A stretch of DNA of 64,000 nt from Dehalococcoidia bacterium (GTDB lineage Bacteria > Chloroflexota > Dehalococcoidia > Lucifugimonadales > UBA3495): positions 149,569-213,568 of the forward strand of contig CBDCFD010000005.1 in NCBI GenBank assembly GCA_965216155.1. The letters are read 5' to 3'. Positions 3,027 to 60,185 of the stretch are shown one piece after another (the first letter of the stretch is position 1; every line of letters begins with the position of its first letter). A model generated the notes under the pieces. That model was not told where the DNA came from. It was given only the letters and a program-made list of their open reading frames with translations, and searched no databases. A program made the position numbers and the translations under genes.

Positions 3027-3674
3027 ATGAGCGACGAGCACAACGGCCACGAATCTCATGACCCCATCGAGGAGACCGATGGGCTCAGCTACTACGCAAG
3101 GCGCGCCAGGGCAATCGAGGCATTGCTCCAGGAGAAGGGCCTCTGCACCCTCGAAGAAGTGCAACGGGCCGTAGACGCCGTAGAGTCGCGGTCCCCCGCC
3201 GACGGCGCAAAGGTGGTCGCGCGGGCGTGGGTTGACCCCGGGTTTAAGTCACGGCTATTGGCCGATGCCCGCTCCGCCCTGGAGGAAATGGGCTACACGC
3301 TGCCGGAAGCCAACACTCAATTGGCCGTGTTGGAGAACACTGAGGACGTCCATTACCTCGTGGTGTGTACCCTCTGCTCCTGCTATCCCCGAAACCTGCT
3401 GGGCCGGCCACCCGACTGGTACAAGAGCCTGGCTTACCGCTCCCGGGCAGTGGTAGACTCTCGCGGCGTCATGCGGGAGTTCGGACTGGACGTGCCGGAG
3501 AGAGTGGAGGTCAGGGTGATGGACAGCACAGCCGACCTGCGCTACCTGGTCCTCCCCCTCCGCCCGGACGGCACCGATGGACTCAGCGAGGAAGAGTTGG
3601 CCAAACTGGTCAACCGGGACAGCATGATCGGGGTTACCGAGCCGTTCATCCCGCAGGCTGCGGCCCCGCCTTAA
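3027..3674 (+). CDS. nitrile hydratase-family alpha subunit (Co-type motif)
   Basis: 215 aa. Carries the metal claw VCTLCSCYP and PPDWYKSLAYRSR. Confidence 0.9.
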   Translation: MSDEHNGHESHDPIEETDGLSYYARRARAIEALLQEKGLCTLEEVQRAVDAVESRSPADGAKVVARAWVDPGFKSRLLADARSALEEMGYTLPEANTQLAVLENTEDVHYLVVCTLCSCYPRNLLGRPPDWYKSLAYRSRAVVDSRGVMREFGLDVPERVEVRVMDSTADLRYLVLPLRPDGTDGLSEEELAKLVNRDSMIGVTEPFIPQAAAPP

Positions 3675-3720
3675 CGGGCCGTACCGGTCCAGAGCCTTCG
3701 GTCTCCGGTCGAGGCTGAGA

Positions 3721-4578
3721 TCATTCGCCTCCGAGCAGGGTCCCGGTGGACGTGTCGGCAGCCGCCGTCCGCCGGGGATTGATAAGGTCGTTGGCGAGAC
3801 CGGAGAAGAACTCCTTGATCTCTGGAATCTGGTCAGGGTTGCCCAGCCCGGTGTGAAGCGGCGTAATGGAGATGTGGTTGTTCCTCACAGCCCAAATGTC
3901 GGTGCCGGGCTCGGGATCACGGGACATGGGGCGGTCGCGAGAAATCCAATACTTCTTCTGATGCCCGGTCCCTTCCTCGCGGACCGATTCTCCGTAAGAG
4001 CGGCCACCCAGCCTGGTAAATTCCACGCCGGCAATCTTGTCCAGAGCCATGCTTGGCACATTGATGTTCAGGAAAACCCCCCGGTTGGAGTCCCACTCCG
4101 ATAGCCGGTCCGCCAGCACTGTCAGCAGTCGTGCAGCCGGAGTGAAATTGGGGTCGCGGATGGAGCCCACGGATATGGCAACGGTTGGATAGCCACGGAC
4201 GTAACCCTGCACCGCACCGCCGACCGTACCAGATACCATAGTATCCCAACCGAGGTTGGAACCGGGGTTTATCCCGGACACCACCAAGTCCACCCTGCCG
4301 GCCAATTTCTCCAAGGCGAGGATACAGCAGTCCGCGGGAGTGCCTTCGACCGCATATCCAGAGAGTGCTCCGGGGGAAGCTCCGTCGTCCGCCGGGTCCG
4401 GGTAAACTGTGACCTGACGCGCCCTCACCGGCATCCGAAGAGTGAGAGAACCGCCGACTCCGCTTTGCTCCCGGTCCGGGGCCAGCAGCACAACGTCGCC
4501 CACTTTCCGCAAGGCGTTGGCGGCTGCCCACAGGCCGGGAGCATGAATTCCGTCGTCGTTAATCAGTAGTATTTTCAA
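3721..4578 (-). CDS. surE: 5'/3'-nucleotidase SurE
   Basis: MKILLINDDGIHAPGL start and the GINPGSNLG motif. Confidence 0.9.
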   Translation of the reverse strand: MKILLINDDGIHAPGLWAAANALRKVGDVVLLAPDREQSGVGGSLTLRMPVRARQVTVYPDPADDGASPGALSGYAVEGTPADCCILALEKLAGRVDLVVSGINPGSNLGWDTMVSGTVGGAVQGYVRGYPTVAISVGSIRDPNFTPAARLLTVLADRLSEWDSNRGVFLNINVPSMALDKIAGVEFTRLGGRSYGESVREEGTGHQKKYWISRDRPMSRDPEPGTDIWAVRNNHISITPLHTGLGNPDQIPEIKEFFSGLANDLINPRRTAAADTSTGTLLGGE

Positions 4579-4661
4579 ATTAGCTATGCGTTAACCACCC
4601 AGCCACGGGTCAGTCACATAAGTCTCCAATTCCGGCGTTGGGCAGGAAAAAGCCCCTTCCG

Positions 4662-5534
4662 TCAGTGGTGCGCAACTCCGGTGGCGTGGAACAGCGCATG
4701 CCTGATTTCCACCACGGCCATCGCCCGCCTGTACTCGGCGGACGCATAGAAGTCACCCAGAATCTCGTCACCCAGGTCTCCGGCCGCCTGGCTCGTAGCG
4801 GCGGTTATGTTCTCGTTGGTCAGTTCCTTGCCTGTCAGCCCAGCCTCCACGGAGGTTACGCGCACCGGGACAGGCGTGGCCCCGCCGACAGCGATGCTGG
4901 CGCGGGTGCAGGTGTGGTGATCGACGTTGACCACGACCGCTGCCCCAACTACGGCATAGCCGGATGCAGGGTGGGACATCTTGGCGTATTCGCCCCTTTG
5001 GTTGGCCGTCAGCACCGGAACATTGATCGCGATCAGAAGCTCGGTGTCACTCAGGCTGGTGGTCAATGGACCGAGAATCAATTCGGTGGGGGTCACAGTA
5101 CGGGACGCGCCTCCGGACCCCTGAATTTCCAGGGTGGCCCCCAGGGCGGTTAGCACCGTTCCCCAGTCCGAGGCCGGGTCTGCGTGGGACAGATTTCCCC
5201 CAATTGTGCCCCGGTTCCTGACCTGGGTGTCACCGATCCCGCCCGCCGCTTCGGCCAGCAGGGAGTTGGCGGACTGCAACTCAGGGGAGGACTCGATCTC
5301 CCAGTGGGTCGTCAACGCGCCTATTCTGATGGAACCGTTGTTGACTGAGATGCCCTTCATCTCCGAGATGCCGCTGATGTCCACAACCGCTCCCGGTCTG
5401 GCCAGCCGCAACTTGAGCAGCGGAATCAGGCTGTGGCCTCCGGCCATCGCCTTTGCCCCCGGGTTGGAGCCAAGCATGTCGATAGCCTCGGCTACCGTGG
5501 TGGCCTTGTAGTAGTCGAACTCTGGAGCAAACAT
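4662..5534 (-). CDS. xanthine dehydrogenase/CO dehydrogenase family FAD-binding medium subunit (CoxM-like)
   Basis: 290 aa. AGGHSLIPLLKLRLARP FAD-binding motif. Lies downstream of the large subunit. Confidence 0.9.
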   Translation of the reverse strand: MFAPEFDYYKATTVAEAIDMLGSNPGAKAMAGGHSLIPLLKLRLARPGAVVDISGISEMKGISVNNGSIRIGALTTHWEIESSPELQSANSLLAEAAGGIGDTQVRNRGTIGGNLSHADPASDWGTVLTALGATLEIQGSGGASRTVTPTELILGPLTTSLSDTELLIAINVPVLTANQRGEYAKMSHPASGYAVVGAAVVVNVDHHTCTRASIAVGGATPVPVRVTSVEAGLTGKELTNENITAATSQAAGDLGDEILGDFYASAEYRRAMAVVEIRHALFHATGVAHH

Positions 5535-5536
5535 GT

Positions 5537-8095
5537 CTATGCCCCCTTGGACTGCTGAATAGCTTGCCAGACTCGCTCCGAGGTCAACGGCATTTCCAGC
5601 CTTGTAATGCCGAATGGCTTCAGGGCGTCGATGACCGCGTTGTAGATGGTGATGGTTGACGCGATGGTGCCGGTCTCACCGATTCCCTTCACGCCCAACG
5701 GGTTGTGCGGGGACGGGGTGACCGTGGATAGGGTCTCGATATGGGGAAGCAGGTGCGCCTTGGGCAGCGCGTAATCCAGCATCGACCCGGTCAATAGCTG
5801 ACCGTCGTCATCGTAGACCGCGCCTTCCCAGAGGGCCTGACCCGCGCCTTGAACGACACCGCCGTGGACCTGTCCCTCGACGATCATCGGGTTGATCTGC
5901 CGGCCGCAGTCGTCCAGCGCCGCGTAGCGAAGCAACACGATATGTCCGTTGTCGGTGTCCACACTGACCACGGCCACGTGGGCCCCGAATGGGAACGTAA
6001 AGTTGGGCGTGTCATAGAAGGCGCTGGCCTCCAGACCCGGCTCCATTCCTTCGGGCATGTTCCACGCCATGTTGGCCATGAGGGCTATGTCCTGAATAGT
6101 TTGGCTCCGGTCGGGCGACCCACGGACAAAGAACTTACCGTCCTCATATTCGATGTCTTCCTCGGCGGCCTCCAGCAAATGGGCCGCCAGTCCGATGGCC
6201 TTATCTTTGATCTTGCGTGAACTGAGCGCCACAGCGGCGCCGCTAATCACCGTGGTCCGGCTGCCGTAGGTGCCCCAGCCCATCGGCGTGTTGTCCGTGT
6301 CGCCGTGGATGACTTCCACGTCGTCCACCGGGACCCCAAGCTCGTCGGAGACGATCTGGGCGAAGGTGGTTTCCTCGCCCTGCCCGTGGGGAGACGTCCC
6401 CACAAATACGTTGACCTTGCCGGTGGCGTAGAAGCGGATTATGGCGCTCTCCCACAGGCCGCCGCCAAATCCCACCGCACCGGCTACCTGGGAAGGACCG
6501 ATGCCGCAGATCTCGCAGTAAGTGCTCACGCCAATGCCGAGTAAGTGACCGGCGGCTGATGGTTGGACGCCGTGTTCTTCACCGTGGGCATGGCCGTGCT
6601 CGTCACCATGGCCATGACCGTGTTCATCACCGTGGCCATGACCGTGTTCATCACCGTGGCCGTGCTCGTCACCGTGGCCGTGGCCGTGCTCGTCACCGTG
6701 ATCATGTCCGTGACCGTGGCCGGGGTGCTCATGGCCATGCTCACCGGCAACCGGCTCTTGGCCACGGCTAATGGCCTGTTCGCGGCGCAGGTTCTGGTAG
6801 TCCACGTGCTCCAGCACTTTGTCCAGGGCGGCATGGTAGTCGCCGCTGTCGTAGGTCAGCCCCAGCGAGATGTCGAACCCGTCCTCGAACTTGGGGATCA
6901 AGTTGATGCGTCTCACTTCAACCGGGTCCATGTCCAGTTCGTTGGCCAGGAGGTCAACCATTCGCTCGACCAGGAAGGTTGCTTCGGGCCTGCCCGCACC
7001 CCGGTAGGCGTCGACAGGCGTGGTGTTGGTGAAGACCCCGTAGATATCCGCCTTGATGTTGGGGATGTCGTAGGGGCCGGAATACATCAGTCCGTGCAGG
7101 ATGGTCGGGATTCCAGGGCCGGCCGTAGAAAGGTAGGCCCCCATGCCAGCGTGGACAACGGACCGCAGACCCGTGATCTTGCCTTCCCTGGTGGCGGCCA
7201 TCTCCACAGCCTGGACGTGGTCCCTGCCGTGGGTGCTCGCCTGGTAGTTCTCCGACCGTGTCTCGGTCCACTTGACCGGGCGCCCCAACTGCATGGAGCA
7301 GAAGGCGGCGATCATCTCCCACGGATAGACCGGTATCTTAGCCCCGAATCCGCCGCCCACCTCGGGAGCTATGACGCGAATCTTGTGCTCCGGCACTCCG
7401 GTGACCAACGAGGTGACGAACCGGGCGATGTGTGGGTTCTGGGTGGTGTTCCAGATGGTCAGTTCGCCCATTGCCGACGCATAACTGGCGACGGCGGAGC
7501 GGGGCTCCATTGCGTTGGGAATCAAGCGCTGCTGCACGATAGTATCGGTAACCGTGACTTCTGCCGCGGCGAACGCGGTATCGGTGTCGCCCCCGGCGGC
7601 CACCCAATGGAACGCCTGGTTGTTGGGGGCATCCTCGTGAAGCTGGGGCACTCCTTCGTTCATCGCCGCTTCAGCGTGCACGTTGGCCGGAAGGGGCTCG
7701 TAGTCCACGTTGATCAGTTCCAGGGCGTCTTCGGCCTGGTAGCGGCTTCCGGCGACCACAACCGCCACGGCGTCGCCGGCGTAGCGCACGGTATTGGTGG
7801 CCATAGCCGGGTATGCGACGGCCTTAACATCCGAGTCGGGGACTACCCAGGCGCACGGAATGGGGTTCAGCACGCCATCCGTGTCCGCTCCGGTATAGAC
7901 TGCCACGACTCCGGTGGCTGACTTGGCGGCGCTGGTGTCGATGCTGCGAATCCTGGCATGGGCGTGGGGGCTACGCAGAATGGCGGCGTAGACCATGCGA
8001 TTCAGGCTGATGTCGTCGGTATACGTTGCTTGTCCGGTGATTAGCCGCGGGTCTTCCCGGCGGCGAATCCCGGAGCCGAATATTCTGGTAGTCAT
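5537..8095 (-). CDS. molybdopterin-binding large subunit, form-II CoxL-like (AYRGAGR), with a His-rich insertion
   Basis: 852 aa. The active-site loop is VDAYRGAGRPEA (form II, not the AYxCSFR of genuine CO dehydrogenase). Contains an HGHGDE repeat insert. Confidence 0.9.
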   Translation of the reverse strand: MTTRIFGSGIRRREDPRLITGQATYTDDISLNRMVYAAILRSPHAHARIRSIDTSAAKSATGVVAVYTGADTDGVLNPIPCAWVVPDSDVKAVAYPAMATNTVRYAGDAVAVVVAGSRYQAEDALELINVDYEPLPANVHAEAAMNEGVPQLHEDAPNNQAFHWVAAGGDTDTAFAAAEVTVTDTIVQQRLIPNAMEPRSAVASYASAMGELTIWNTTQNPHIARFVTSLVTGVPEHKIRVIAPEVGGGFGAKIPVYPWEMIAAFCSMQLGRPVKWTETRSENYQASTHGRDHVQAVEMAATREGKITGLRSVVHAGMGAYLSTAGPGIPTILHGLMYSGPYDIPNIKADIYGVFTNTTPVDAYRGAGRPEATFLVERMVDLLANELDMDPVEVRRINLIPKFEDGFDISLGLTYDSGDYHAALDKVLEHVDYQNLRREQAISRGQEPVAGEHGHEHPGHGHGHDHGDEHGHGHGDEHGHGDEHGHGHGDEHGHGHGDEHGHAHGEEHGVQPSAAGHLLGIGVSTYCEICGIGPSQVAGAVGFGGGLWESAIIRFYATGKVNVFVGTSPHGQGEETTFAQIVSDELGVPVDDVEVIHGDTDNTPMGWGTYGSRTTVISGAAVALSSRKIKDKAIGLAAHLLEAAEEDIEYEDGKFFVRGSPDRSQTIQDIALMANMAWNMPEGMEPGLEASAFYDTPNFTFPFGAHVAVVSVDTDNGHIVLLRYAALDDCGRQINPMIVEGQVHGGVVQGAGQALWEGAVYDDDGQLLTGSMLDYALPKAHLLPHIETLSTVTPSPHNPLGVKGIGETGTIASTITIYNAVIDALKPFGITRLEMPLTSERVWQAIQQSKGA

Positions 8096-18852: not shown

Positions 18853-19473
18853 CTAGTGCATGGGAGAGAAGGAAGACGGCACCAGCATCTTGTTTTCCTG
18901 GCTGAGCAGGAATTCCCGGGTCGGCGGGGGCCAATGCTCGTTCTTGCTGGCCTCGGCGCGAATCTGGTTGCGCTCTTCCATATCCTTGTAGGGCCAGACG
19001 TGCATCCACTTGTTGAGGGACCCGAGGTCGCTGTGCATGGCGGCGGCGCAAGGTGAGTACTCCTCGCGGTGGGGGATGGCTTCGCCCCAGCGCTTGAGCA
19101 CTTCCGGCATCGAGCCGTTCTTGTACGTGTAGATGCGCATTTCGTAGATGTTCCCCAGCTCCTGTCCGCCGCCCATGGGCCGCATGAAGGGAGCGGGTAT
19201 GTAGATGTCGGAGGACAGGCTGACGTACATCTCGGGTGGGTTCTTGGGCGGCCAGTCCGGGTCCTTCGAGGCTTCGGCCCGGATGCTATTGCGCTCATCC
19301 ACGCTCTCGTAGGGCCAAACGTGGATCACCTGGTTCAGCGGACCGATGTCGGTGTGCCAGAAAGCGCCTAGCTTGGAGTATTTTTCCCTTGCGGGGAGGG
19401 CCTTGGCGAAGTTTTCCTCGAATTGGGCTACGGAGCCGGGTTGGAGAGTGTAGGTACGGACTTCGTATATCAC
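18853..19473 (-). CDS. NIPSNAP family protein (two NIPSNAP domains)
   Basis: YEVRTYTLQPGS and YEMRIYTYKNGS repeats. The likely start is GTG (complement of 19471-19473), 5 nt after GGAAGGAG. The ORF track extends the frame to 19581. Confidence 0.8.
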   Translation of the reverse strand: MIYEVRTYTLQPGSVAQFEENFAKALPAREKYSKLGAFWHTDIGPLNQVIHVWPYESVDERNSIRAEASKDPDWPPKNPPEMYVSLSSDIYIPAPFMRPMGGGQELGNIYEMRIYTYKNGSMPEVLKRWGEAIPHREEYSPCAAAMHSDLGSLNKWMHVWPYKDMEERNQIRAEASKNEHWPPPTREFLLSQENKMLVPSSFSPMH

Positions 19474-23019: not shown

Positions 23020-23063
23020 CCCCGATGTCTCCCCCTCTTTGGCAAAAGGGGGAGACATCGGGG
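23020..23063. terminator. long GC-rich hairpin between convergent mutS2 and fic
   Basis: ccccgatgtctccccct...agggggagacatcgggg forms a ~17-bp stem. Confidence 0.6.
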
Positions 23064-24538: not shown

Positions 24539-25342
24539 TTACCGGCCCTGGAACCAGGGGCGGCGCTTTTCTGCGAAGGCGCGGATACCGTCTTGAAAGT
24601 CTCCGGTTAGACCGATTCCCTGCATGGCGGTGGTTTCGGCGTCCAGTTGTTCTTCCAGGCTGGACTCCCACGCGCGGTCGAAGAGGGCCTTGACCCGTCC
24701 GTAGGCCACAGTGGGACCCTGGGCCAACCTCATGGCGGTCTCCAGTACGTGTCTGTCCAGGTCACCGGAAGGGCAGACCTGGCTGACCAGCCCGATTTCC
24801 AGAGCCCCGTCGGCGCTGAGGGGCTGGCTGGCCAAATAAAGCTCCATTGCCTTTCCGGCGCCGATCAACCGGGGCAACATGTAGGTAGAGCCGCCGTCGG
24901 CAGTTGCCCCGATGTTGGCGTAGGCCATCAGGAACCGCGCGGTGCTGGATGCGATGCGCAGGTCGCAGGCCAGCATCAGGCTGAACCCTCCCCCCGCCGC
25001 CACTCCGTCGATGCCGGCGATTACCGGCTTTTGCAGTCGGCGAATCTCCAGTACGACGTCACGGTGCAGCGCCCCGGCCAGGTTGTTGAGGTGTTGGGAG
25101 ATTTCTTCCGGGCCCCCATTTTCCAAGTGGTCCACGAAGTCCTTAACGTCTGCGCCGGAGCAGAAAGATCCCCCGGCCCCGCTGAGGACGACCGCGCGGA
25201 TATTCGGCCCGCGGCAGGACCGTAGGGCCTCGCCCAACTGGTCTACCATTTCGGGAGACAGGGCGTTGCGCGCCTCGGGACGGTTGAGCGTAACCTTGGC
25301 TACGCTGCCCTGGATGGTGAACTCTATTCGGTTGGACGCCAT
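24539..25342 (-). CDS. enoyl-CoA hydratase/isomerase (crotonase) family protein
   Basis: VTLNRPEARNAL and GAGGSFCSGADV motifs. Confidence 0.9.
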   Translation of the reverse strand: MASNRIEFTIQGSVAKVTLNRPEARNALSPEMVDQLGEALRSCRGPNIRAVVLSGAGGSFCSGADVKDFVDHLENGGPEEISQHLNNLAGALHRDVVLEIRRLQKPVIAGIDGVAAGGGFSLMLACDLRIASSTARFLMAYANIGATADGGSTYMLPRLIGAGKAMELYLASQPLSADGALEIGLVSQVCPSGDLDRHVLETAMRLAQGPTVAYGRVKALFDRAWESSLEEQLDAETTAMQGIGLTGDFQDGIRAFAEKRRPWFQGR

Positions 25343-25395
25343 TCTGCACCTCGATTGTTGGGGGATTGTTCGGCGGTTTGACTGTCCTGGCCGGC

Positions 25396-25752
25396 CTACT
25401 CCAGCAATGGCTCCAGCTTTTCCAGCAATTGTCGCACGTCGCGCAGCCCCGCCTCAATCATATTCGCGCTTTGCAGGTCTTCATAGAAGTTGACGTGCAA
25501 GCTGTTGGCGGTGTGGTAGAGGCTGAACAATTGGGAGTCCCCGGTTTCCGCCACCAGCGAGTCAATGACCCCGCTCAAGGATGGGTGTCTATTGTGCCGC
25601 CAACCCCTTTGTTCTGCGATTGCCTTAATCATCTGCGCCGCCGCCCCCCAACCCTTTTCCGAGGCTTGCCGCAGGTCACCATCGGCCAATTCCTCGAAGG
25701 CTTTGACGATGAGCTGTTTGCTTGCTTGGGCGTATACGATGTCCCTGTTCAT
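25396..25752 (-). CDS. PaREP1/HEPN-like helical protein, copy 1
   Basis: 118 aa. ASEKGWGAAAQMIKAIAEQRGWRHNRH...ANSLHVNFYE contains an Rx4-6H-type motif (RGWxHNxH). Paralogous to 27618..28007. Confidence 0.65.
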   Translation of the reverse strand: MNRDIVYAQASKQLIVKAFEELADGDLRQASEKGWGAAAQMIKAIAEQRGWRHNRHPSLSGVIDSLVAETGDSQLFSLYHTANSLHVNFYEDLQSANMIEAGLRDVRQLLEKLEPLLE

Positions 25753-25808
25753 ATTTTATCCTTACCGCTCCGAAGGTACGCGGCTGGGGACATTAAGCCC
25801 CAGTCGTC

Positions 25809-26024
25809 CTATTCCAGCAACGGCTCCAGCTTTTCCAGCAGCAGTTGGACGTCCTGGAAACCCGCTTCGACGACTTCGGGAGGGTCCCAATTCTCATAGA
25901 AATTGCTATGGAGGCTGTTGGCCACATGAAATAGGGTGATTAACTGAGTGCAGCCCTTCGGGCGGTTCAAGGTGACCTTGGCCACGCTGCCCTGGTTAGT
26001 GAACTCGATTCTATCTGATGGCAT
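25809..26024 (-). pseudogene. chimeric remnant: crotonase codons 1-22 fused to the C-terminal ~45 aa of a PaREP1/HEPN-like gene
   Basis: MPSDRIEFTNQGSVAKVTLNRP matches MASNRIEFTIQGSVAKVTLNRP of 24539..25342 at 19/22 residues. It is followed by GCTQLITLFHVANSLHSNFYENW...LEKLEPLLE. Confidence 0.6.
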
Positions 26025-26049
26025 CCTGCACCTCGTCGGTCTGCCGGGG

Positions 26050-27617: not shown

Positions 27618-28007
27618 CTACGTCTCTGGTGTGACTGGACCCGGGGCATACTGCCCCAACATTGGTTCCAGCTTGTCCAGAAATAGACCAACGTCGTGCA
27701 GGGCTAGCTCTACCAACTCCGGGGGCAACCAGTTCTCGTAGAAGTTTGTATGCAGGTTTCCAGCGACTTGGAATAGATTGGCTACCTGGGTATCGCCGGT
27801 CTCTTGGACCAGCGTCCTCACGATTCCGTAAAATAGACGGTGACTATTGTGTGACCAGCCCCTGCGTTCTGCCACGGCCTTGAGCATTTGCGCGGCCGCT
27901 CCCCAACCCTTCTCCGAGGCTTGCACCACGTCTCCCTGTGCCAGTTCCTGAAACGCTTTGGTCAAGAACTCTCTGCTGGCAATGGCGTATCCATCGCGTT
28001 GATTCAT
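27618..28007 (-). CDS. PaREP1/HEPN-like helical protein, copy 2
   Basis: 129 aa. ASEKGWGAAAQMLKAVAERRGWSHNSH...AGNLHTNFYENW. A GGGAGGAG RBS sits 12 nt after the tldD stop. Its own stop is 5 nt before the pmbA ATG. Confidence 0.65.
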   Translation of the reverse strand: MNQRDGYAIASREFLTKAFQELAQGDVVQASEKGWGAAAQMLKAVAERRGWSHNSHRLFYGIVRTLVQETGDTQVANLFQVAGNLHTNFYENWLPPELVELALHDVGLFLDKLEPMLGQYAPGPVTPET

Positions 28008-33572: not shown

Positions 33573-33612
33573 ACTCTACTTCGCCGGTCTTACCTTCGGA
33601 AGCGAAACATAA

Positions 33613-33646
33613 CGAAGCGGGAGCCGACTCTTCGGCTCCCGCTTCG
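33613..33646. terminator. bidirectional terminator hairpin between sodN and hsp20
   Basis: cgaagcgggagccga-ctct-tcggctcccgcttcg forms a perfect 15-bp stem. Confidence 0.7.
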
Positions 33647-33688
33647 TGTTGTGGGAGGAGACACCTTTTTTCGGGGATCGGGTTTCGG

Positions 33689-36363: not shown

Positions 36364-36660
36364 TCATCGGAGAAGGTCTCTGGCGCCACGATACGTTGCC
36401 TCTCCTCGTCGCTCAACCCAGGCGACTTCTACCAATTGTGTTGTGTCCTGTACTCCGTAGACTATTCTATAGGGGCCAACTCTAATGCGGTATATGTCCG
36501 GGCCTAACCGAACGGACCTGGCGGGGCGAGGGTTCGCTGCCAAAGCGTCGATTGCCTCATCCACTCTCTGGCGATAGTTCGGGTGGACTCTTCTCAACTC
36601 CCGCTCGACCCGGCGGCTGCCGGTTATGACTCGATAAAGACTTGGATTCGCTTCGGACAT
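36364..36660 (-). CDS. type II toxin, RelE/ParE family
   Basis: 98 aa. LYRVITGSRRVERELRRV...IDALAANPRP...YRIRVGPYRIVY. Confidence 0.8.
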   Translation of the reverse strand: MSEANPSLYRVITGSRRVERELRRVHPNYRQRVDEAIDALAANPRPARSVRLGPDIYRIRVGPYRIVYGVQDTTQLVEVAWVERRGEATYRGARDLLR

Positions 36661-37219
36661 ACTCGGTAAAGTCCCTTTTTTCTTCTTCCGGGCTTTCGAA
36701 CGCTTCCTTGGCCGCGAGAATGTCCTCCAAGTCCTCGAATCCCTCCGGGGAAGTCATGAAGCTGCGCCACTCCTCGTAATTCGATATAAGCTCCCAACGG
36801 TTGCGGAAACCGCACAGATGGTCTGTCAGGGGATTGCCGTACTTCCGTACACCGGAGTCGAGGTTGAGGTCGCGTATTTTGTGTCTACTCTTGGCCCCGG
36901 TGGAGTAGGCATCGAAAACCATTGAAGGAAAGACCCAGACGTCTGTAATGACGCCGTCCAAGCATGTAACACACATGATGAAGAAATTGGGCCGAGGAGT
37001 GAAGTCAGGCATTTGAAACCAGCGCGGGTCTTTCCCCCCAGCGCCACTCGCTGACTTTATTTGCAGTTCGATCACTTGACCGTCGGGAAGACGCGCCAAG
37101 GCGTCCAAACCCTCATCTACCAAGGGTTTATAGACTGAAACGCCCTGCTTCAGCAGTTCACTGAATACGTGCAACTCTGCCAACTGACCGGCGACTTGCT
37201 TTGTTGATATAGTTCTCAT
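36557..37219 (-). CDS. PD-(D/E)XK (PDDEXK_5-like) domain protein with an antitoxin-like acidic C-terminal tail
   Basis: AELHVFSELLKQGVSVYKPLVDEGLDAL...IELQIKS nuclease-fold core. The tail is EDLEDILAAKEAFESPEEEKRDFTEYV. The last 104 nt overlap the RelE ORF in another frame. Confidence 0.6.
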   Translation of the reverse strand: MRTISTKQVAGQLAELHVFSELLKQGVSVYKPLVDEGLDALARLPDGQVIELQIKSASGAGGKDPRWFQMPDFTPRPNFFIMCVTCLDGVITDVWVFPSMVFDAYSTGAKSRHKIRDLNLDSGVRKYGNPLTDHLCGFRNRWELISNYEEWRSFMTSPEGFEDLEDILAAKEAFESPEEEKRDFTEYVRSESKSLSSHNRQPPGRAGVEKSPPELSPESG

Positions 37220-38203
37220 CTACCCCTCGTCCCTCAGCCACTGGGCCACCTCCTTGGCGTGGTAGCTCAGGATGATGTCGGCCCCGGCGCGGCTGATGGC
37301 CGTGAGCAGTTCCAGCGTCACCATCTTCTCGTCCAGCCAGCCGTGGCCGCCGGCGGCCTTGACCATCGAATACTCGCCGCTGACGTTGTAGGCGGCCAGG
37401 GGATGGTCGAAGCGTTCGCTGGCCCGGCGGATTACGTCCAGGTATGCCAGCGCGGGCTTCACCATGACGATGTCCGCGCCCTCGGCGATGTCGCTTTCGA
37501 TCTCGCGCATGGCCATCCGGGCGTTGGCGGGGTCCATCTGGTAGCTGCGCCGGTCGCCGAACTGGGGAGTAGAGTCAGCCGCGACGCGGAAGGGACCGTA
37601 AAAGGCCGAAGCGTACTTGGCGGCATAACCCATGATGGGCATTCCGTCGTAGCCCTCGTTGTTCAGGGCTTCGCGGATGGCCCGCACCTGGCCGTCCATC
37701 ATCGCCGACGGGGCCACCATGTCCGCGCCCGCTTGTACCTGGGTCACGGCGGTCCGCGCCAGCAGTTCCAACGTGGCGTCGTTATCCACGTGCCCATTGT
37801 CGATTACGCCGCAGTGGCCGTGATCGGTGTACTCGCACATGCAGACGTCGGTGATGACCATCATTCCGGGGGCTTCGCGTTTGATGGCGCGAATTGCTTC
37901 CTGGATGATCCCCTCGGGGTCATAGCCCTCGGAACCCAGCGGGTCCTTCTCGGCGGGCAGGCCGAAAAGCAGCACCGCCGGAACGCCCAGGTCGTAAGCT
38001 TCTCCCACCTCTTCGACGAGCCGGTCCAGCGAGAAATGGTAACAGCCCGGCATGGGCTCTATCGGTTGCCGGACGCCGGTCCCGTGGGTGACGAACAGGG
38101 GGTACACGAATTGAGAAGCCGACAGCCGGGTCTCCCTGGTCAGGTTGCGGAGAGGCTGTTGCTCCCGCAGGCGCCGAAGTCGAAGATCGGGAAAGCTCAG
38201 CAT
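37220..38203 (-). CDS. hemB: porphobilinogen synthase (Zn-type)
   Basis: 327 aa with DVCMCEYTDHGHCG and the active-site lysines. Confidence 0.95.
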   Translation of the reverse strand: MLSFPDLRLRRLREQQPLRNLTRETRLSASQFVYPLFVTHGTGVRQPIEPMPGCYHFSLDRLVEEVGEAYDLGVPAVLLFGLPAEKDPLGSEGYDPEGIIQEAIRAIKREAPGMMVITDVCMCEYTDHGHCGVIDNGHVDNDATLELLARTAVTQVQAGADMVAPSAMMDGQVRAIREALNNEGYDGMPIMGYAAKYASAFYGPFRVAADSTPQFGDRRSYQMDPANARMAMREIESDIAEGADIVMVKPALAYLDVIRRASERFDHPLAAYNVSGEYSMVKAAGGHGWLDEKMVTLELLTAISRAGADIILSYHAKEVAQWLRDEG

Positions 38204-38279
38204 GGCTATGACCTCCTCGGATGGTCAGTATGACACCCGGCAGCGTATTCCCGCCAGGCGCCCGCCAGGAATACCGGGC

Positions 38280-39803
38280 CTACGCGTTGGCGCAGTGTTC
38301 CACCAGCGCGTCCACGAGCCCTTGTACGGTATGGACCCGGGCGACCACGTCCACGCGCAACCCCAATCCAATGGCGGTGGCGGCGGTCGTGGGGCCGATG
38401 CAAGCGATGATACTCTGTTCCAGGGTCTTCCGGTCGCCGTCCAACATGTTCAACAGGTTTTCCACGGTCGAAGAACTGGTAAACGTGACAAAATCAACGT
38501 TTTGTTCCAGGGTGGACCGGGCTTTATCAGCCATTCCCTCTGCGGGGATGGTGCGGTATGCGGCTATCCGTTCCACCTTTGCTCCGCGCTCAGACAGACC
38601 GCGGGCAACGGCGTCCCGTCCAATGTCCGCTGCCGGTAGCAGCACAGGCACGCCGGTCCAATCGAGGTTTGCCAACTCGGTCACCACCACTTCGGAGACC
38701 GACCGGCTTGGTTCAAAGTCGGGAATGATCCCCCTCTGAGTGAGAGCGTTCCTGGTTGCAGGGCCGATAGCCCCGACGTTCAACCCACCGAAGGCCCGGC
38801 TGTCTTTACCCAGGAGTGTAAGGCGTTCGAACACCGCGTCGACCGCGTTAATGCTGGCAAATATGACCCACTGGAATTCGCCGAGCCGGGTGAGGGCCGA
38901 GTCCAACTCCGTGTAGTCTTCCAGGCCGACGGTCTGGATGGCCGGTATCTCAACGGGCTGGGCCCCAAGTTCCTCCAGCAGCAACCGGAATTGGGAAGCC
39001 TGGGTGCGGGAGCGGGTGATCAGCACTTTCTTGCCGAAGAGGGGGCGTTGGTCGAACCACGCCAACTCTTGGCGGAGTCCTGCCACCGGGCCAATGACGG
39101 CGGCCACGGGCGGCCTCAGTCCGGCTTCTTTGCCAAGGGTTACGGCGTTCTCCAGGTTGCCGGTGACAGTAGCCTGTTGGGGCCAGGTGCCCCACTGCAC
39201 CAGTGCAACCGGGGTCTCAGGGGGCATGGACTCGTGAATAAGAGTCTCCAGGATTGATTGGAGAGGCTGCCAGCCCATCAACACCACCAGGGTCCCGCCG
39301 GTACGGGCCAAGGCGTCCCACCTGATGACCGAGGAGTTGGGCTTGGAGGGGTCTTCGCTGCCGCTAACGACGGTGAAGGACGACGCCAACCCCCGGTGGG
39401 TTAGCGGTATTCCCGCGTATGCAGGAGCGGCGACCGCCGATGTGACGCCGGGCACGACCTCAAAGGGAATCCCGTTGTTGGCAAGGGCCAGGGCTTCTTC
39501 CCCGCCGCGGCCGAAAACGAAAGGGTCTCCGCCCTTCAAACGGACGACTACGTTGCCCGCCTTGGCCTCATCGACCAAAAACTGGTTTATCTCGCCCTGG
39601 CTCATGGCCTGCCGGTCCCGTTCCTTGCCAACGAACACACGCCGGACCCGGACCGGCGCCAAGTCCAGCAGCGCCGGGTCGAGCAGCCGGTCATACAAGA
39701 CCACCTGCGCCAACGCCAGGCAACGCGCCCCCTTGACGGTTATCAGGCCCGGGTCGCCCGGTCCAGCGCCCACGAGGTAGACTTTGCCAGCCAATTGACT
39801 CAC
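38280..39803 (-). CDS. uroporphyrinogen-III C-methyltransferase / uroporphyrinogen-III synthase fusion
   Basis: GTG start. VYLVGAGPGDPGLITVKG SUMT N-terminal domain plus a HemD-like C-terminal half. Confidence 0.9.
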   Translation of the reverse strand: MSQLAGKVYLVGAGPGDPGLITVKGARCLALAQVVLYDRLLDPALLDLAPVRVRRVFVGKERDRQAMSQGEINQFLVDEAKAGNVVVRLKGGDPFVFGRGGEEALALANNGIPFEVVPGVTSAVAAPAYAGIPLTHRGLASSFTVVSGSEDPSKPNSSVIRWDALARTGGTLVVLMGWQPLQSILETLIHESMPPETPVALVQWGTWPQQATVTGNLENAVTLGKEAGLRPPVAAVIGPVAGLRQELAWFDQRPLFGKKVLITRSRTQASQFRLLLEELGAQPVEIPAIQTVGLEDYTELDSALTRLGEFQWVIFASINAVDAVFERLTLLGKDSRAFGGLNVGAIGPATRNALTQRGIIPDFEPSRSVSEVVVTELANLDWTGVPVLLPAADIGRDAVARGLSERGAKVERIAAYRTIPAEGMADKARSTLEQNVDFVTFTSSSTVENLLNMLDGDRKTLEQSIIACIGPTTAATAIGLGLRVDVVARVHTVQGLVDALVEHCANA

Positions 39804-39837
39804 GCTCTCCTGAAATTAACCGCAGGGCGGCCGCGGG

Positions 39838-40676
39838 TTATTGACCTTCGGGCTGCTCTTGCCAGGGGTCTTTGCCGGTGAGGAAGGCCACGCGCCGGAA
39901 GATTTGCCGGGTGTCGTTCAGGACTTTTTGATAGAGTTCGTTCCGGTCGCCCAGAGGGGCGTATGGTCCATCGTATTTCAGCCTTCCGCTGTAGTCGTTG
40001 AGGCTATGCAGGGGAGACTCCAGCGGGTGGGTGAACCCCCGGTCGACCCGGCGATACGGATTTCCATGTCAACCAAGTCGTGGTGGTGCGGGTAGCGGTT
40101 TATGCGGGCCGAAATCAGGGCTTTCATCGCGTGTTCCAAAGTTTGGTGGGCCTGCTGGCCTACCATGATGCCCGTGCCGCGATTGTCTATGATCACGCGC
40201 AGCGCGTGGAGGTGCGACCTGGTATGGTAGCATCGCTGGTCGGTAACGCTCCACTCGGCGGAATAGTCCTCGTCGTCGTTGGGATATTCGTCCCCGGCGG
40301 GCCGGCCGTCCATCGTAATGCCTTCCTCTGACGCTATCGCGGCCACGCTGTTAATGCTGCGCCGCATCCGGTCGAACTCTTCGGGAGTAAACCAGATGAA
40401 ATCCACAGGAACGAACATCCCGTAAAGCGCTTTGACCTTTGCGTCGGCGGCGCGCCGGGCTTTATCCCGTATTTCGTCATCTTGCCAGCGGGGGTGGACG
40501 AGGAGAATATCCAGGTCGGAATCCTTATGATAGTCGCCCCGCGCCCGCGAGCCGAACAGGATAACGTCCTCGGCAGCCGTATCCCGCAACACGGCCTGGC
40601 CGACGGCCAGTGCGTTGCCATCGTATTGGCCGGGGCTTGCGTCTGCCAGGTAGACTTTGCCTGCCAACTGGTTCAT
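39838..40676 (-). pseudogene. fused MNT nucleotidyltransferase-HEPN protein; its first 11 codons copy cobA; frameshifted near the 3' end
   Basis: LFGSRARGD...DSDLDILLV is the MNT part and ARINRYPHHHDL is the HEPN Rx4-6H. After a G-run (complement of 40047-40049) the sensible continuation VDRGFTHPLESPLHSLNDYSGRLKYD...FLTGKDPWQEQPEGQ* lies in another frame and ends at 39838. Confidence 0.7.
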
Positions 40677-40716
40677 GCTCTCCTATCAGAATCAGGCATT
40701 GCCGAGCATCTCACGC

Positions 40717-41049
40717 TCAGAACAAGGCGGGTTGAGGGTTCCCTGTTTCGGGGAGAGCGCCCAGTAGCGCCTGCAAGTCTGCGTCCGCCAAACATTCTTC
40801 CTCGAAATGGTCGACTTCCACTTTCTCGAATGCCGCAAAATTGTAAGGCGGGTCTTGAATAGCCAGGGAAGCCTTCTCAGCGCCCATCAGCCCTAGCACT
40901 GCGGACTGGTCAGCGGCGTCAAGACACCCGACCCGATGATTACCTTCCGGGTCCTCCCATATCTCACCCTCCCGAATCCTGCAATACTTGAGCAGGCAGG
41001 CGTGTAGATCCGGGTTTCTGTCGAGCCGGGGAATAGGAAAGTTCTTCAC
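40717..41049 (-). pseudogene. N-terminal fragment of an N4/N6 DNA methyltransferase
   Basis: GEIWEDPEGNHRVGCLDAADQ...ASLAIQDPPYNF (motif IV DPPY). The ORF stops about 40 aa later, with no SAM-binding half. Confidence 0.55.
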
Positions 41050-41109
41050 GCCGTTACAACAGTGGCGCCGGTTGCAGTACGCCGCGGCGAATTTTCGACA
41101 AATCGCTGG

Positions 41110-42042
41110 TCATAACTCCTCCCACTCCACCTCCAGCAGCGGGCCGCCGCCCCGTTCCACGACGGCCAAATAGGCGTCGCTGGCTAGTTGCAGCGGGTCG
41201 TGGGTCAGGCCCTCTACCTTGGCGCGGAACGCCTTTTTCCCGTCGGGGGAACTCAGGAACACGGTCAGGAACAGGGACTCTCCCGATGCCCGCCCATAGG
41301 CTCCCACGGGGAGTTGGCAGCCGCCGCCCAGCTTTTCCAGGAATGCCCGTTCCGCGGTGACGGCGAATCTGGTCTCCGGGTGCTCGGCGGGGCGAAGCAG
41401 GTCCATGAGTTCGTTGTCGTCGGCCCTGACCTCGATGCCGAGAGCGCCTTGTCCGGGAGGAGGCACGAACCGCTGGGGAGAAAGGTACTCGGCAATGTGT
41501 TCGCTGAGACCCAGGCGGGCCAGACCGGAAGCCGCCAGGATGGCTCCGTCGTAGTCTTCGCCGGTCGCCTTGCTCAGCCGGGTGTCCACGTTGCCCCGGA
41601 TGGGAAGCACTGTTGCCTGGGGGCACAGGGTCTTCAAAAGGGCCTGACGCCTGGGGCTGCTGGTGCCGATGCGGGCCCCCTCCGGTAGCTCGGACAGGGA
41701 GCATCTCCAGCGGTTGACCAGCACGTCCCGCGGGTCCTTGCGCCGGGGAGTCGCGCCAATGGCCAGGCCCTCGGGTAGCTGGGTTGGCATGTCCTTGAGG
41801 CTGTGAACCGCCATGTCCAGGGTGCCGTCGAGCAACTGCCGTTCGATCTCTTTTACGAAGATACCCAGGCCCATGTTGGCCAAAGGCGCGGTGGGGTTGG
41901 CGTCGCCGTGGGTGCGCACGATCTCCACCTGGAACTCGACGTCCGGGTACATCCGGCGCAGGACGTCCAGGACTTCCTCGGTCTGGCGAAGGGCCAGGCC
42001 GCTGCCGCGGGTGCCGACCTTAATTACATTCCGCTGCGCCAA
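41110..42042 (-). CDS. hemC: hydroxymethylbilane synthase
   Basis: KVGTRGSGLALRQTE start, 310 aa. Confidence 0.95.
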   Translation of the reverse strand: MAQRNVIKVGTRGSGLALRQTEEVLDVLRRMYPDVEFQVEIVRTHGDANPTAPLANMGLGIFVKEIERQLLDGTLDMAVHSLKDMPTQLPEGLAIGATPRRKDPRDVLVNRWRCSLSELPEGARIGTSSPRRQALLKTLCPQATVLPIRGNVDTRLSKATGEDYDGAILAASGLARLGLSEHIAEYLSPQRFVPPPGQGALGIEVRADDNELMDLLRPAEHPETRFAVTAERAFLEKLGGGCQLPVGAYGRASGESLFLTVFLSSPDGKKAFRAKVEGLTHDPLQLASDAYLAVVERGGGPLLEVEWEEL

Positions 42043-42043
42043 G

Positions 42044-42751
42044 CTACGGCCCTCGATTCTGCTTGAGGGTGGCGCAGGGCTGGGAGCCGCACCGGTCCAC
42101 CTCGGAACACAGTTCCGGCGTGTCCGGGTTGGTCAGGTCTGACAGAAGCACAGACACAGCGTCATCCTCACGGCCTGACTGCGCCAGCTTCAGGGCCTTG
42201 GAGGTCATGCCGCACTGCCACCGCTGGCGGTCAATTCTCACCCCCATGCGTTTCACTTCCCGGCGGACCCGGGACAGCACCCTGGCGAGGTCGGACCATT
42301 CAAGGGCCGGGGATTCCTCCAACGACTCCCGCAGTTTACGGGCGAGGGCCGGGCTGGCCCCTCCGGTGGAAATGGCCAGGGTGACATCTCCCCGCTTCAC
42401 AATCGCCGGGGCGATGAAGGAACATAGCGCCGGGTCGTCCACCACATTAAGGAGTGTTCCCAACTGCTCGGCTTCCTGGGATATGCAGCGGTTCACCTCC
42501 CGCTTGTTGGTGGCCGCGATTCCCATGAACGCGCCGTCCAGGTCGCCGGGCCGGTACTTGCGCGCCTGCCACTCCAGCTTGCCTTGATCGGCAAGGGAAC
42601 GGATAGCCGGGGTAGCATCCGGGCTGATTACCGAAATCGCCGCGCCGGAGGACTGTAACTTTATAATCTTATCTTCGGCGACCGTGCCCCCTCCGAAAAC
42701 GACACAGCGCCTGCCCTTCAGGTCCAAATAGACAGGATAGTAGTCAGACAT
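42044..42751 (-). CDS. precorrin-2 dehydrogenase/sirohydrochlorin ferrochelatase (siroheme synthase N-domain type)
   Basis: YPVYLDLKGRRCVVFGGGTVAEDK Rossmann start. Confidence 0.85.
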   Translation of the reverse strand: MSDYYPVYLDLKGRRCVVFGGGTVAEDKIIKLQSSGAAISVISPDATPAIRSLADQGKLEWQARKYRPGDLDGAFMGIAATNKREVNRCISQEAEQLGTLLNVVDDPALCSFIAPAIVKRGDVTLAISTGGASPALARKLRESLEESPALEWSDLARVLSRVRREVKRMGVRIDRQRWQCGMTSKALKLAQSGREDDAVSVLLSDLTNPDTPELCSEVDRCGSQPCATLKQNRGP

Positions 42752-44894: not shown

Positions 44895-45270
44895 TATTTT
44901 GAGTGGCTCCTATTGCTGGAGCCATTTAACCATAGGGGGGATTGGAGGTGCAATAAAGTTCTACTTATTTTACGCCTCCGACCCTGCTATTCTCTCCATT
45001 GCAAGAGGCGTACACGCTACCCCGATTCCTAATGGCAGTCATTGGCTGTCCTTGGAGCATGGGTCTATGGTAGCTGAGACCGGCATGTTTCATGCCCCCT
45101 TGAGGCCCATGCGATATGGGGTTAGGCGTCTCTTGCAAGTGCCGAATCCTGGCCGCAAGGGGGCTCCCTCCTATGTCCTTCCAAGAGCGTTGGCTGAAAC
45201 TACGGGACCAGATCAGGAAAGATGACCTGATAAGATAGGCCCTGCCGGACTGTGATTCCGGCAGGGCCTA
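44895..45270 (+). ncRNA. candidate structured RNA of unknown class, ending in a terminator-like hairpin
   Basis: Nested helices pair 44904-44910 with 44918-44924, 44944-44950 with 44973-44979, 44999-45010 with 45127-45138, 45057-45063 with 45106-45112, and 45082-45087 with 45091-45096. A perfect 12-bp hairpin spans 45238-45268. The G-U pairs are valid only on the plus strand. Confidence 0.4.
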
Positions 45271-45423
45271 TTACGTTAAGCGCCGCCGCCGAGACGGAGA
45301 CGCCCACGGGCCTGAGTAAGGCTGCCCCTATTGTAGCAGCAGGGGCGGTCCTGTAGGGTTACATCAGTAACGAATTGATTGCCTCCCGTTTCGGTGAGTT
45401 TTCACCGGAAGGGAGGTATTTTT

Positions 45424-54716: not shown

Positions 54717-54788
54717 ATCAAATCCTCTGTGGCCAGTGGCCGGTTGCCGGTGGTCAGTTTCCGCCGGCCACACGTGCCTGTCCACGTG

Positions 54789-54837
54789 CCACTGGCGACT
54801 GACCACTGGCCACTGGCCACTAGCCACTAGCCACTGA
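54789..54837. repeat. heptanucleotide tandem repeat (CCACTRG) x7
   Basis: ccactgg cgactga ccactgg ccactgg ccactag ccactag ccactga, located between the SDR stop and the gatC upstream region. Confidence 0.85.
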
Positions 54838-60093: not shown

Positions 60094-60116
60094 GGGCGCG
60101 TCACGCTCCTAATTTA

Positions 60117-60179
60117 CATGGATGCACAGGATATACAGGATAAAATAAGCAGAAATCCTGTATATCCTGTGCATCCATG
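60117..60179. repeat. perfect 25-bp inverted repeat (palindromic element copy 1)
   Basis: catggatgcacaggatatacaggat, a 13-nt loop, then atcctgtatatcctgtgcatccatg. It lies between the alpha and beta subunit genes. Confidence 0.9.
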
Positions 60180-60185
60180 TTTGAA

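Follow-up and report, generated by a model that had tools for sequence, protein, structure and literature searches.

How an accessory gene can come to begin with a copy of the start of its neighbour is the question raised by the heme/siroheme operon of a Dehalococcoidia bacterium, present in a 64-kb window of contig CBDCFD010000005.1 (64,000 nucleotides, the whole stretch of DNA that was analyzed). The operon contains hemC, a 110-aa open reading frame (ORF), a fused MNT-HEPN gene, cobA-hemD and hemB, in this order, and the MNT-HEPN gene starts with a diverged duplicate of the translation-initiation region of cobA. The initial annotation had proposed that this duplicate goes back to the insertion of a HEPN-family gene. 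The account favoured here, probable though far from secure, is that a second copy of the gene came to lie behind the cobA translation start through a duplication joint formed at a microhomology, and that the parental copy was later lost.

All features described are oriented on the minus strand and are given in window coordinates. Local alignment identified a direct repeat of 56 nt between 40684-40629 and 39811-39756, in which 43 of 56 positions are identical without gaps. The 32 of 37 identical positions counted by hand earlier between 40648-40684 and 39775-39811 were reproduced exactly as the first 37 columns of this alignment, which hold five differences against eight in the next 19 nt. A repeat search of 38000-42200 returned this pair as the longest direct repeat (77%, spacing 873 nt), and in a self-BLAST of the whole window it was found with E=8e-6. 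The spacing encloses only the MNT-HEPN gene and its spacer. The upstream copy (40629..40684), cobA-derived throughout, forms the leader of MNT-HEPN and consists of the Shine-Dalgarno (SD) sequence AGGAGAGC at 40684-40677, an ATG at 40676-40674 and codons 2-16, NQLAGKVYLADASPG. The downstream copy (39756..39811) is the functional cobA translation-initiation region, with the SD sequence at 39811-39804, a GTG at 39803-39801 and codons 2-16, SQLAGKVYLVGAGPG. It was confirmed that the aligned stretch covers the ribosome-binding site, the start codon, ATG in one copy and GTG in the other, and the first codons, and translation gave the expected protein starts, MNQLAGKVYLA... for MNT-HEPN and (V/M)SQLAGKVYLV... 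for CobA-HemD (MSQLAGKVYLV with the initiator read as methionine). Between 37000 and 45000 no Rfam match at the gathering threshold was obtained that would indicate a structured RNA or riboswitch in the repeat.

A protein search yielded 267 homologues of MNT-HEPN. Among the 120 homologues listed, the commonest start is MTTA[AT]VK-YD..ALAVGQ; MTTA[AT]VK-YD is found in most clades of a neighbour-joining (NJ) tree, which was built without support values, and distant members start similarly. The native ATG overlaps the hemC stop codon at the loci L025, L020 and L031. From the orthologues and these native N-termini the position of the junction in the window could be deduced: the cobA-derived leader reaches codon 16 (...SPG), and the family's own sequence begins at K/Q17-Y18, equivalent to K7-Y8 of the native N-terminus. 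A normal MNT domain does follow the leader, as had been stated, but the cobA-derived part extends beyond the previously estimated codon ~13 to codon 16. A chance match or a family-native N-terminus was ruled out by the self-BLAST value and by the usual MTTAAVK start. An assembly artefact was ruled out as well: the copies are 23% diverged and are thus not an assembly duplication, and the architecture is also present in the independent assemblies L021, L023 and L024.

In length and junction, the leader of the window gene (MNQLAGKVYLADASPGQ followed by YD) agrees with those at L023 (MTQSTGKAHQATVAPGK followed by YD) and L024 (MIQLAGRVHQATSASAK followed by HD), and L021 carries a 5'-shortened version of the same type with the same ...PG-K/Q junction to YD. 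The genes with these four leaders, designated type A, form one clade in the NJ tree, in which the window gene branches first. Within the clade dS is at least 0.55, and CobA of the orthologues' genomes is 71-72% identical to that of the window; because the leader is shared across genomes this far apart, the capture predates their splits. At the level of sequence comparison, the leader is shown to be a genuine derived copy of the cobA translation-initiation region, old and common to the orthologues. At non-synonymous sites it evolves ~4x faster than the gene body (dN 0.28-0.54 versus 0.09-0.12 within type A), and the leader peptide is therefore hardly constrained.

A recent duplication or gene conversion in this genome was ruled out, since the leader is equally close to foreign cobA genes: it matches its own cobA at 44 of 59 positions, those of L021 and L026 at 43 of 59 and that of L023 at 42 of 59. 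Patch copying without duplication of the gene is another possible explanation: two template switches or a short gene conversion would have replaced the first seven codons of the resident gene, and later conversion would have kept the similarity. Such copying would account for a patch with sharp limits in a gene present only once, for the better preservation of the first 37 nt than of the next 19 nt of the repeat, and for a lineage-specific codon that two type A leaders share with their own cobA, such as ACT in L023. It is nevertheless quite improbable, as there is no excess of similarity within the genome (44/59 versus 42-43/59), two switches are needed instead of one, and the two-copy states and duplicated hemC tails and spacers of relatives, described below, are not predicted by it.

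Relatives of the locus were found via CobA-HemD and are Dehalococcoidia metagenome-assembled genomes. All 11 homologues with a readable context (P0043, P0002, P0001, P0004, P0011, P0007, P0087, P0017, P0050 and P0064/P0030; loci L020, L021/L022, L023, L024, L025, L026, L027, L028/L029, L030 and L031), from related Dehalococcoidia, lie between hemC and cobA-hemD. The gene body has a dN/dS of 0.15-0.25 at a dS of 0.55-1.2, and at the same loci the closest MNT-HEPN proteins are 77-79% identical to that of the window, CobA 71-74% and HemC 72-73%. Because its identities resemble those of its neighbours, its dN/dS is low and its site is constant, MNT-HEPN is shown, again from sequences, to behave as a long-term resident that is inherited with the operon and kept by selection. 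Empty hemC-cobA sites, for which a search had been proposed, are present in the closest relatives (L001-L003, CobA 86-87% identical), where hemC is directly followed by cobA and the MNT-HEPN gene is lacking; with a resident gene, this absence would most simply be a later loss. The N-terminus of the MNT-HEPN family is generally replaceable. Other clades have long leaders unrelated to cobA at 4001-4060 of both L028 and L030 (MDNRIAIANSDSNGISTNAG, MNASKTPPQKGTASPAAAG, MNELNAAARQS...).

A reading of the repeat as the mark of a mobile HEPN-family gene insertion is thus not supported, given the hemC-cobA context in 11 of 11 cases, the purifying selection and a leader common to orthologues. A mobile element that carried MNT-HEPN, such as a transposon, an integron cassette or an integrase-driven island, might also have left the repeat as its target-site duplication or attachment site; direct repeats on either side of one accessory gene, from a family commonly considered mobile, would agree with this. 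Fused MNT-HEPN genes occur on prophages and islands in Shewanella (PMC13000451), and the hemC-cobA junction holds varied accessory genes, among them restriction-modification, vapBC and a gene for an HSDR_N protein. Such an origin is still very improbable, because the repeat corresponds to the start region of cobA itself, its length ranges from 21 to 72 nt across lineages, and the gene is syntenic in all contexts examined, with a native start coupled to hemC. No recombinase, transposase, integrase or att-like element was found within or beside the 873-nt interval, no such ORF is present in 39800-41100, and the inverted repeats in 38000-42200 are only short and imperfect. The transposon target duplications known to us are, moreover, all far shorter than 56 nt. 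The long target duplication considered in the initial annotation is therefore abandoned, on the variable length and identity of the repeat and the lack of a transposase or integrase gene in the interval.

At least four distinct junctions containing the 5' end of cobA were identified in relatives; capture is recurrent at this locus, and the initial annotation is supported in this part. At L020, a native copy of the gene is followed by a second copy led by 24 codons of the genome's own cobA (repeat of 72 nt, 82%; leader MTPPTGKVHLIDAGPGNPALLTAK followed by YD, cobA start MTPPTGKVYLIGAGPGDPGLLTVKG). The joint lies at CCGTCAAG, which is common to cobA codons 22-24 and native MNT codons 5-7, and the two gene copies are 70% identical over 783 nt. 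At L027, 16 cobA codons are followed by the last hemC codons and then by a complete native start (MTPPAGKVYLIGAGPGE-FV-MTTAATG; 62 nt, 89%), with the joint at CGGAGA. At L031, the order is hemC, MNT#1, a 36-aa ORF, MNT#2 and cobA, and the 36-aa ORF consists of a cobA-like start (MSKPTLKGF) and the 27 C-terminal HemC residues, copied without change. The unit of hemC tail, MNT-HEPN and cobA 5' end is present twice (4011-4953 and 4919-5852; 946 nt, 72%), and its joint lies at TACCTG, found both in cobA (codons 9-10) and in the hemC tail. The same TACCTG is present at the joint of a relic at L026 (3821-3990), where an ORF 9 nt past the hemC stop has MAGKVYL joined to the hemC tail and is followed by a copy of the MNT-cobA spacer; this relic points to a second, older junction at the same locus. 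The L026 gene itself, downstream of the spacer copy, is led by its own cobA SD sequence and seven codons (MNPLPGK followed by YD).

Microhomologies of 6-8 nt are thus present at three junctions (L020, L027 and L031), and the type A joint of the window shows only a partial match, CCGGGC versus GCCGTC, after long divergence. The leaders carry residues 2-5 of the cobA of their local lineage (TPPT in L020, NP in L026, [SN]QLA in the window), so they were not all inherited from one event. A second MNT-HEPN copy is present in L031 and L020 and absent between hemC and the leader in the window. L031 has the layout expected of a tandem duplication, the spacer copy before the L026 leader is as a duplicated unit predicts, and the junction structures of the relatives seem to fit microhomology-mediated illegitimate recombination, with nothing specific to HEPN genes about them. 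It is very likely that the following hold together: cobA is the source of the leader, which is ancient and common to the orthologues; purifying selection has acted on a long-resident gene; and other junctions exist in relatives, some of them at microhomologies and one with the tandem-duplication layout.

In the original state proposed for the window lineage, MNT-HEPN would have started with MTTAAVK-YD at an ATG overlapping the hemC stop. Stops and starts of the neighbouring genes overlap or abut, and a duplication of the whole middle gene must therefore break in hemC or the MNT 5' end and in the cobA 5' end. Illegitimate, microhomology-guided recombination would have joined cobA codon 16 to MNT codon 7, and its partners would most simply be two sister chromosomes, giving a tandem duplication. 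The product would be a second gene copy with the SD sequence, start codon and first 16 codons of cobA, joined in frame and translated from the cobA signals, with cobA intact downstream. The hemC-proximal parental copy would later have been lost, its place being now taken by a methyltransferase remnant of a restriction-modification system, and the chimeric gene would have been inherited vertically into the window genome and several relatives. The leader would give MNT-HEPN a translation start of its own, independent of coupling to hemC, and the leader ATG is presumably the start actually used. We infer that the type A junction arose in this way, by tandem duplication and subsequent loss of the first copy.

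Several observations weigh against this reconstruction. No trace of a parental copy was found upstream of any type A leader, and in the window similarity extends only ~8 nt upstream of the ATG; a tandem duplication thus requires a second step, the complete non-homologous loss of the first copy. The co-resident copies of L020 and L031 are only 70-72% identical and fall into different clades of the NJ tree, for which there are no support values, a divergence that fits an ancient duplication and a homeologous allele from a related donor equally well. At L026, the relic 9 nt after hemC has the cobA N-terminus MAGKVYL, versus MNPSTGKVYL in the resident cobA, and looks like an originally empty hemC-cobA site that took up foreign DNA. 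Types A and C may have been derived by in-frame deletion from a longer junction, so that the number of independent events, at least four, is not certain. Finally, one gene caller put the start of the window gene at TTG, codon 4 (P0006).

Additive integration of a related donor's DNA, either by homology-facilitated illegitimate recombination or, as the initial annotation had suggested, by a Campbell-type single crossover of a looped-out circular unit, would account for several of these points. A recipient with adjoining hemC and cobA would receive MNT-HEPN, the spacer and the cobA 5' end from the donor; one crossover would be homologous, in cobA, and the other illegitimate, in the recipient's cobA 5' end, by which the recipient's start would be stranded as the leader. 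This takes one step and no later deletion, explains why the upstream similarity stops near the SD sequence, and agrees with the empty sites in L001-L003, with co-resident copies of L020 and L031 that are in different clades and 63% (aa) or 70-72% (nt) identical, and with the L026 relic 9 nt after hemC and its cobA N-terminus unlike that of the resident cobA. In the crotonase case described below, in which pmbA adjoins crotonase in nearly all related loci with pmbA, there was a true insertion. Against a donor, MNT-HEPN has diverged in parallel with its neighbours, and the type A clade is consistent with vertical descent; the donor must already carry the gene upstream of cobA, which leaves the origin of that arrangement unexplained; and L031 also duplicates the hemC tail, the layout of an in-situ tandem duplication. 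That neither a recombinase or transposase nor an att-like element is present in or next to the 873-nt interval counts in the same direction. Transformation delivers linear single strands, which disfavours the integration of a circle. On balance, donor integration is given a minor but appreciable probability, and a circular intermediate may have acted here or in the crotonase case.

The initial annotation had paired MNT-HEPN with a second case of the same architecture, at the crotonase gene. The tldD-pmbA-crotonase row contains three PaREP1-family sequences, two intact and one a chimeric fragment. Self-BLAST matched 25955-26035 to 25273-25353 (81 nt, 78%, E=6e-13) and 25805-25946 to 25392-25533 (142 nt, 65%). 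In the chimera (25809..26035; ORF of 71 aa, ATG at 26024) the crotonase SD sequence and 23 codons (26035-25955) run on in frame into the final ~47 codons of a PaREP1 gene, and an intact PaREP1 gene (25396-25752) lies between this ORF and the crotonase (enoyl-CoA hydratase) gene (24539..25353), whose own initiation region is at 25273-25353. A third PaREP1 gene, at 27618-28007, is located between tldD and pmbA; it was checked for a captured pmbA start and none was found. No homologue of the 71-aa chimeric ORF (P0121) with the same architecture was found, and it is known only as itself, on 7 contigs, from this population alone. The empty sites that had been sought here are common: ~50 of 80 related metagenome loci contain pmbA, which in nearly all of them lies beside crotonase, mostly ~18-25 nt away, and this adjacency identifies the crotonase case as a true insertion. 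PaREP1 is absent from the 80 loci, and the 18 related loci checked contained no duplicate of the crotonase 5' end. The crotonase/PaREP1 event is thus recent and lineage-specific, and a real insertion relative to an empty site.

The layout of the two cases is indeed similar, and both are real; the equivalence drawn between them holds no further than that, because the hemC-cobA event is old. The argument that two instances within 15 kb make coincidence unlikely is weakened accordingly, since the two differ greatly in age and are not two products of one burst. A broader reading, to which a rather low probability is assigned, is that small toxin-antitoxin and defence genes (MNT-HEPN, PaREP1, vapBC, restriction-modification) spread without a recombinase between related Dehalococcoidia into essential operons. 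A looped-out unit or linear fragment may be anchored solely by the 5' end of the downstream essential gene and integrate additively, and the recipient's stranded gene start may supply the newcomer with translation signals. If this were true, the hemC-cobA junctions and the crotonase/PaREP1 chimera would be traces of a single, general way in which accessory genes move.

The process proposed for MNT-HEPN has a close counterpart in Escherichia coli, in which spontaneous tandem duplications placed a silent gene behind the promoter of the downstream gene, and 5 of 8 deletion or duplication events had breakpoint microhomologies of 3-12 bp (Li and Bock, 2019; PMC6614815). As there, the 5' region of the downstream gene lies before a second copy of the upstream gene, the downstream gene is intact, and breakpoints are microhomologous, with 6-8 nt in L020, L027 and L031. 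Unlike there, the event is natural and ancient (dS of at least 0.55 since), an in-frame coding leader was captured rather than a promoter alone, the parental copy is lost, and at least four different junctions are found at one locus in related genomes. Chimeric genes at tandem-duplication boundaries have been described mainly in Drosophila and other eukaryotes. In these, too, a gene body is joined to the 5' end of its neighbour and the parental genes are preserved at the flanks, but where the genes of a bacterial operon overlap or abut, the duplication of a middle gene will almost always break in its neighbours. Homology-facilitated illegitimate recombination is reportedly known from naturally transformable bacteria, through work attributed to de Vries and Wackernagel in 2002, and the published cases are said to usually delete rather than duplicate recipient DNA. 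A cobA anchor with a microhomology joint could leave such a stranded 5' end; here, by contrast, recipient DNA is duplicated, and a donor origin is putative.

FhepTA is a fused MNT-HEPN toxin-antitoxin of 276 aa carried on prophages and islands in Shewanella (Yao et al., 2026; PMC13000451). The family described here shares with FhepTA and type VII HepT/MntA the domain order, the size (265-286 aa) and the nucleotidyltransferase (NTase) and R-x4-6-H motifs. Sequence similarity is low, with 26.5 bits for NCBIfam MntA_antitoxin versus a cut-off of 60, and, unlike FhepTA, the family is fixed in a biosynthetic operon and inherited with it. PADLOC gave only weak PDC-S09 matches, on the NTase core, and the matches of a PDB search cover the MNT core only. 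Prophages and islands may integrate at a gene terminus for which they bring a substitute. Common to both situations are a host gene that stays functional and an insert flanked by a diverged second copy of the terminus; the present locus differs in having no integrase and no conserved core site, in comprising a single 0.8-kb gene and in the variable length of the duplication.

The MNT-HEPN gene (39838..40676) comprises ~279 codons if repaired, and its product matches PF01909 (NTP_transf_2, E=1.5e-11), PF05168 (HEPN, E=1.9e-7 on the frame-repaired protein) and PF18765 (E=2.8e-6). The N-terminal NTase motif GSRARGDYHKDSDLD corresponds to the pattern G-S-x(9-13)-D-x-D and the C-terminal HEPN motif RINRYPHHH to R-x4-6-H. 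Relative to orthologues one base is missing between 40062 and 40053 (in the region of GGAAATCC), where the frame switches in tblastn with P0002 and P0004. As a result the last ~70 codons are out of frame and the HEPN domain is cut after its motif, leaving an open ORF at 39978-40676 (232 aa). Because the identical truncated product is present on other contigs (P0006, P0158), the frameshift is probably a real inactivation, and it must be recent, since the window gene still has a dN/dS of ~0.16 versus orthologues.

Upstream of it lies hemC (porphobilinogen deaminase; 41110..42042; Pfam Porphobil_deam, E=1.7e-75), and downstream the cobA-hemD fusion (uroporphyrinogen-III C-methyltransferase and uroporphyrinogen-III synthase; 38280..39803; TP_methylase, E=2.7e-54; HEM4, E=2.1e-62). 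A spacer of 34 nt (39804..39837) separates the MNT-HEPN stop (TAA, 39840-39838) from the cobA start and is orthologous to the spacers of L021 and L024 (CCGCGGTTAAT[TA]TCAGGAG...). The 110-aa ORF (40717..41049) was identified by alignment and by tblastn to full-length genes as a DNA methyltransferase remnant, which has lost the catalytic core by an in-frame deletion and retains ~81 aa of the N-terminus, including the DPPY motif, and ~29 aa of the C-terminus. No Pfam match was obtained for the ORF itself; its matches are to full-length genes in L007, L008 and L013, the C-terminal part matching separately, and the full-length gene of L013 belongs to PF01555 (N6_N4_Mtase). These three loci carry at the same site upstream of cobA an intact methyltransferase gene and a partner gene for a protein of 243-248 aa, which is without a Pfam match and probably a restriction enzyme, and in L007 and L013 hemC is directly upstream of the pair.

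The hemC-cobA junction in relatives is a hotspot for accessory genes. L020 carries a 75-aa ORF and the HSDR_N protein gene (3164-4524), and L027 a 77-aa ORF homologous to that of L020 together with a PIN-domain (VapC-like) gene (3296-3969), the last codons of which resemble the 3' end of an MNT-HEPN gene. A 209-aa hydrophobic protein, possibly a membrane protein, is encoded at 4883-5512 of L030. Between hemB and hemL of the window, at 36364-37219, there are two small overlapping ORFs, of which the 98-aa one resembles RelE/ParE by eye, and a 192-aa ORF with a weak ParE_toxin match was found at the same junction in L021; these would be another accessory insertion inside the operon. Elsewhere in the window, self-BLAST detected palindromic (self-reverse-complementary) stretches of 37-100 nt with 73-86% identity at 60116-60180, 54729-54827, 23020-23063, 33607-33652 and 45235-45271. 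Tandem direct repeats with units of ~66-69 nt and ~80% identity lie at 6569-6725, and a direct repeat pair of 224 nt (61%, spaced 321 nt) at 18926-19470.

To our knowledge, the capture of a neighbour's signals through a duplication junction has been known in bacteria mainly from laboratory selections. The hemC-cobA locus is a natural example of this process, in which a gene took the ribosome-binding site, start codon and first codons of its neighbour; it is not a new kind of system, and current understanding is not overturned by it. In related genomes, at least four capture events are recorded at a single operon position, and some of the states look intermediate. For annotation, a divergent duplicate of a housekeeping 5' end before an accessory gene is by itself no sign of a recent insertion or a special mechanism. 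A fused MNT-HEPN gene, though its type is normally seen as mobile, can be a stable, selected member of an essential heme/siroheme operon; fixed there, it might conceivably act as a domesticated regulator with a link to tetrapyrrole synthesis.

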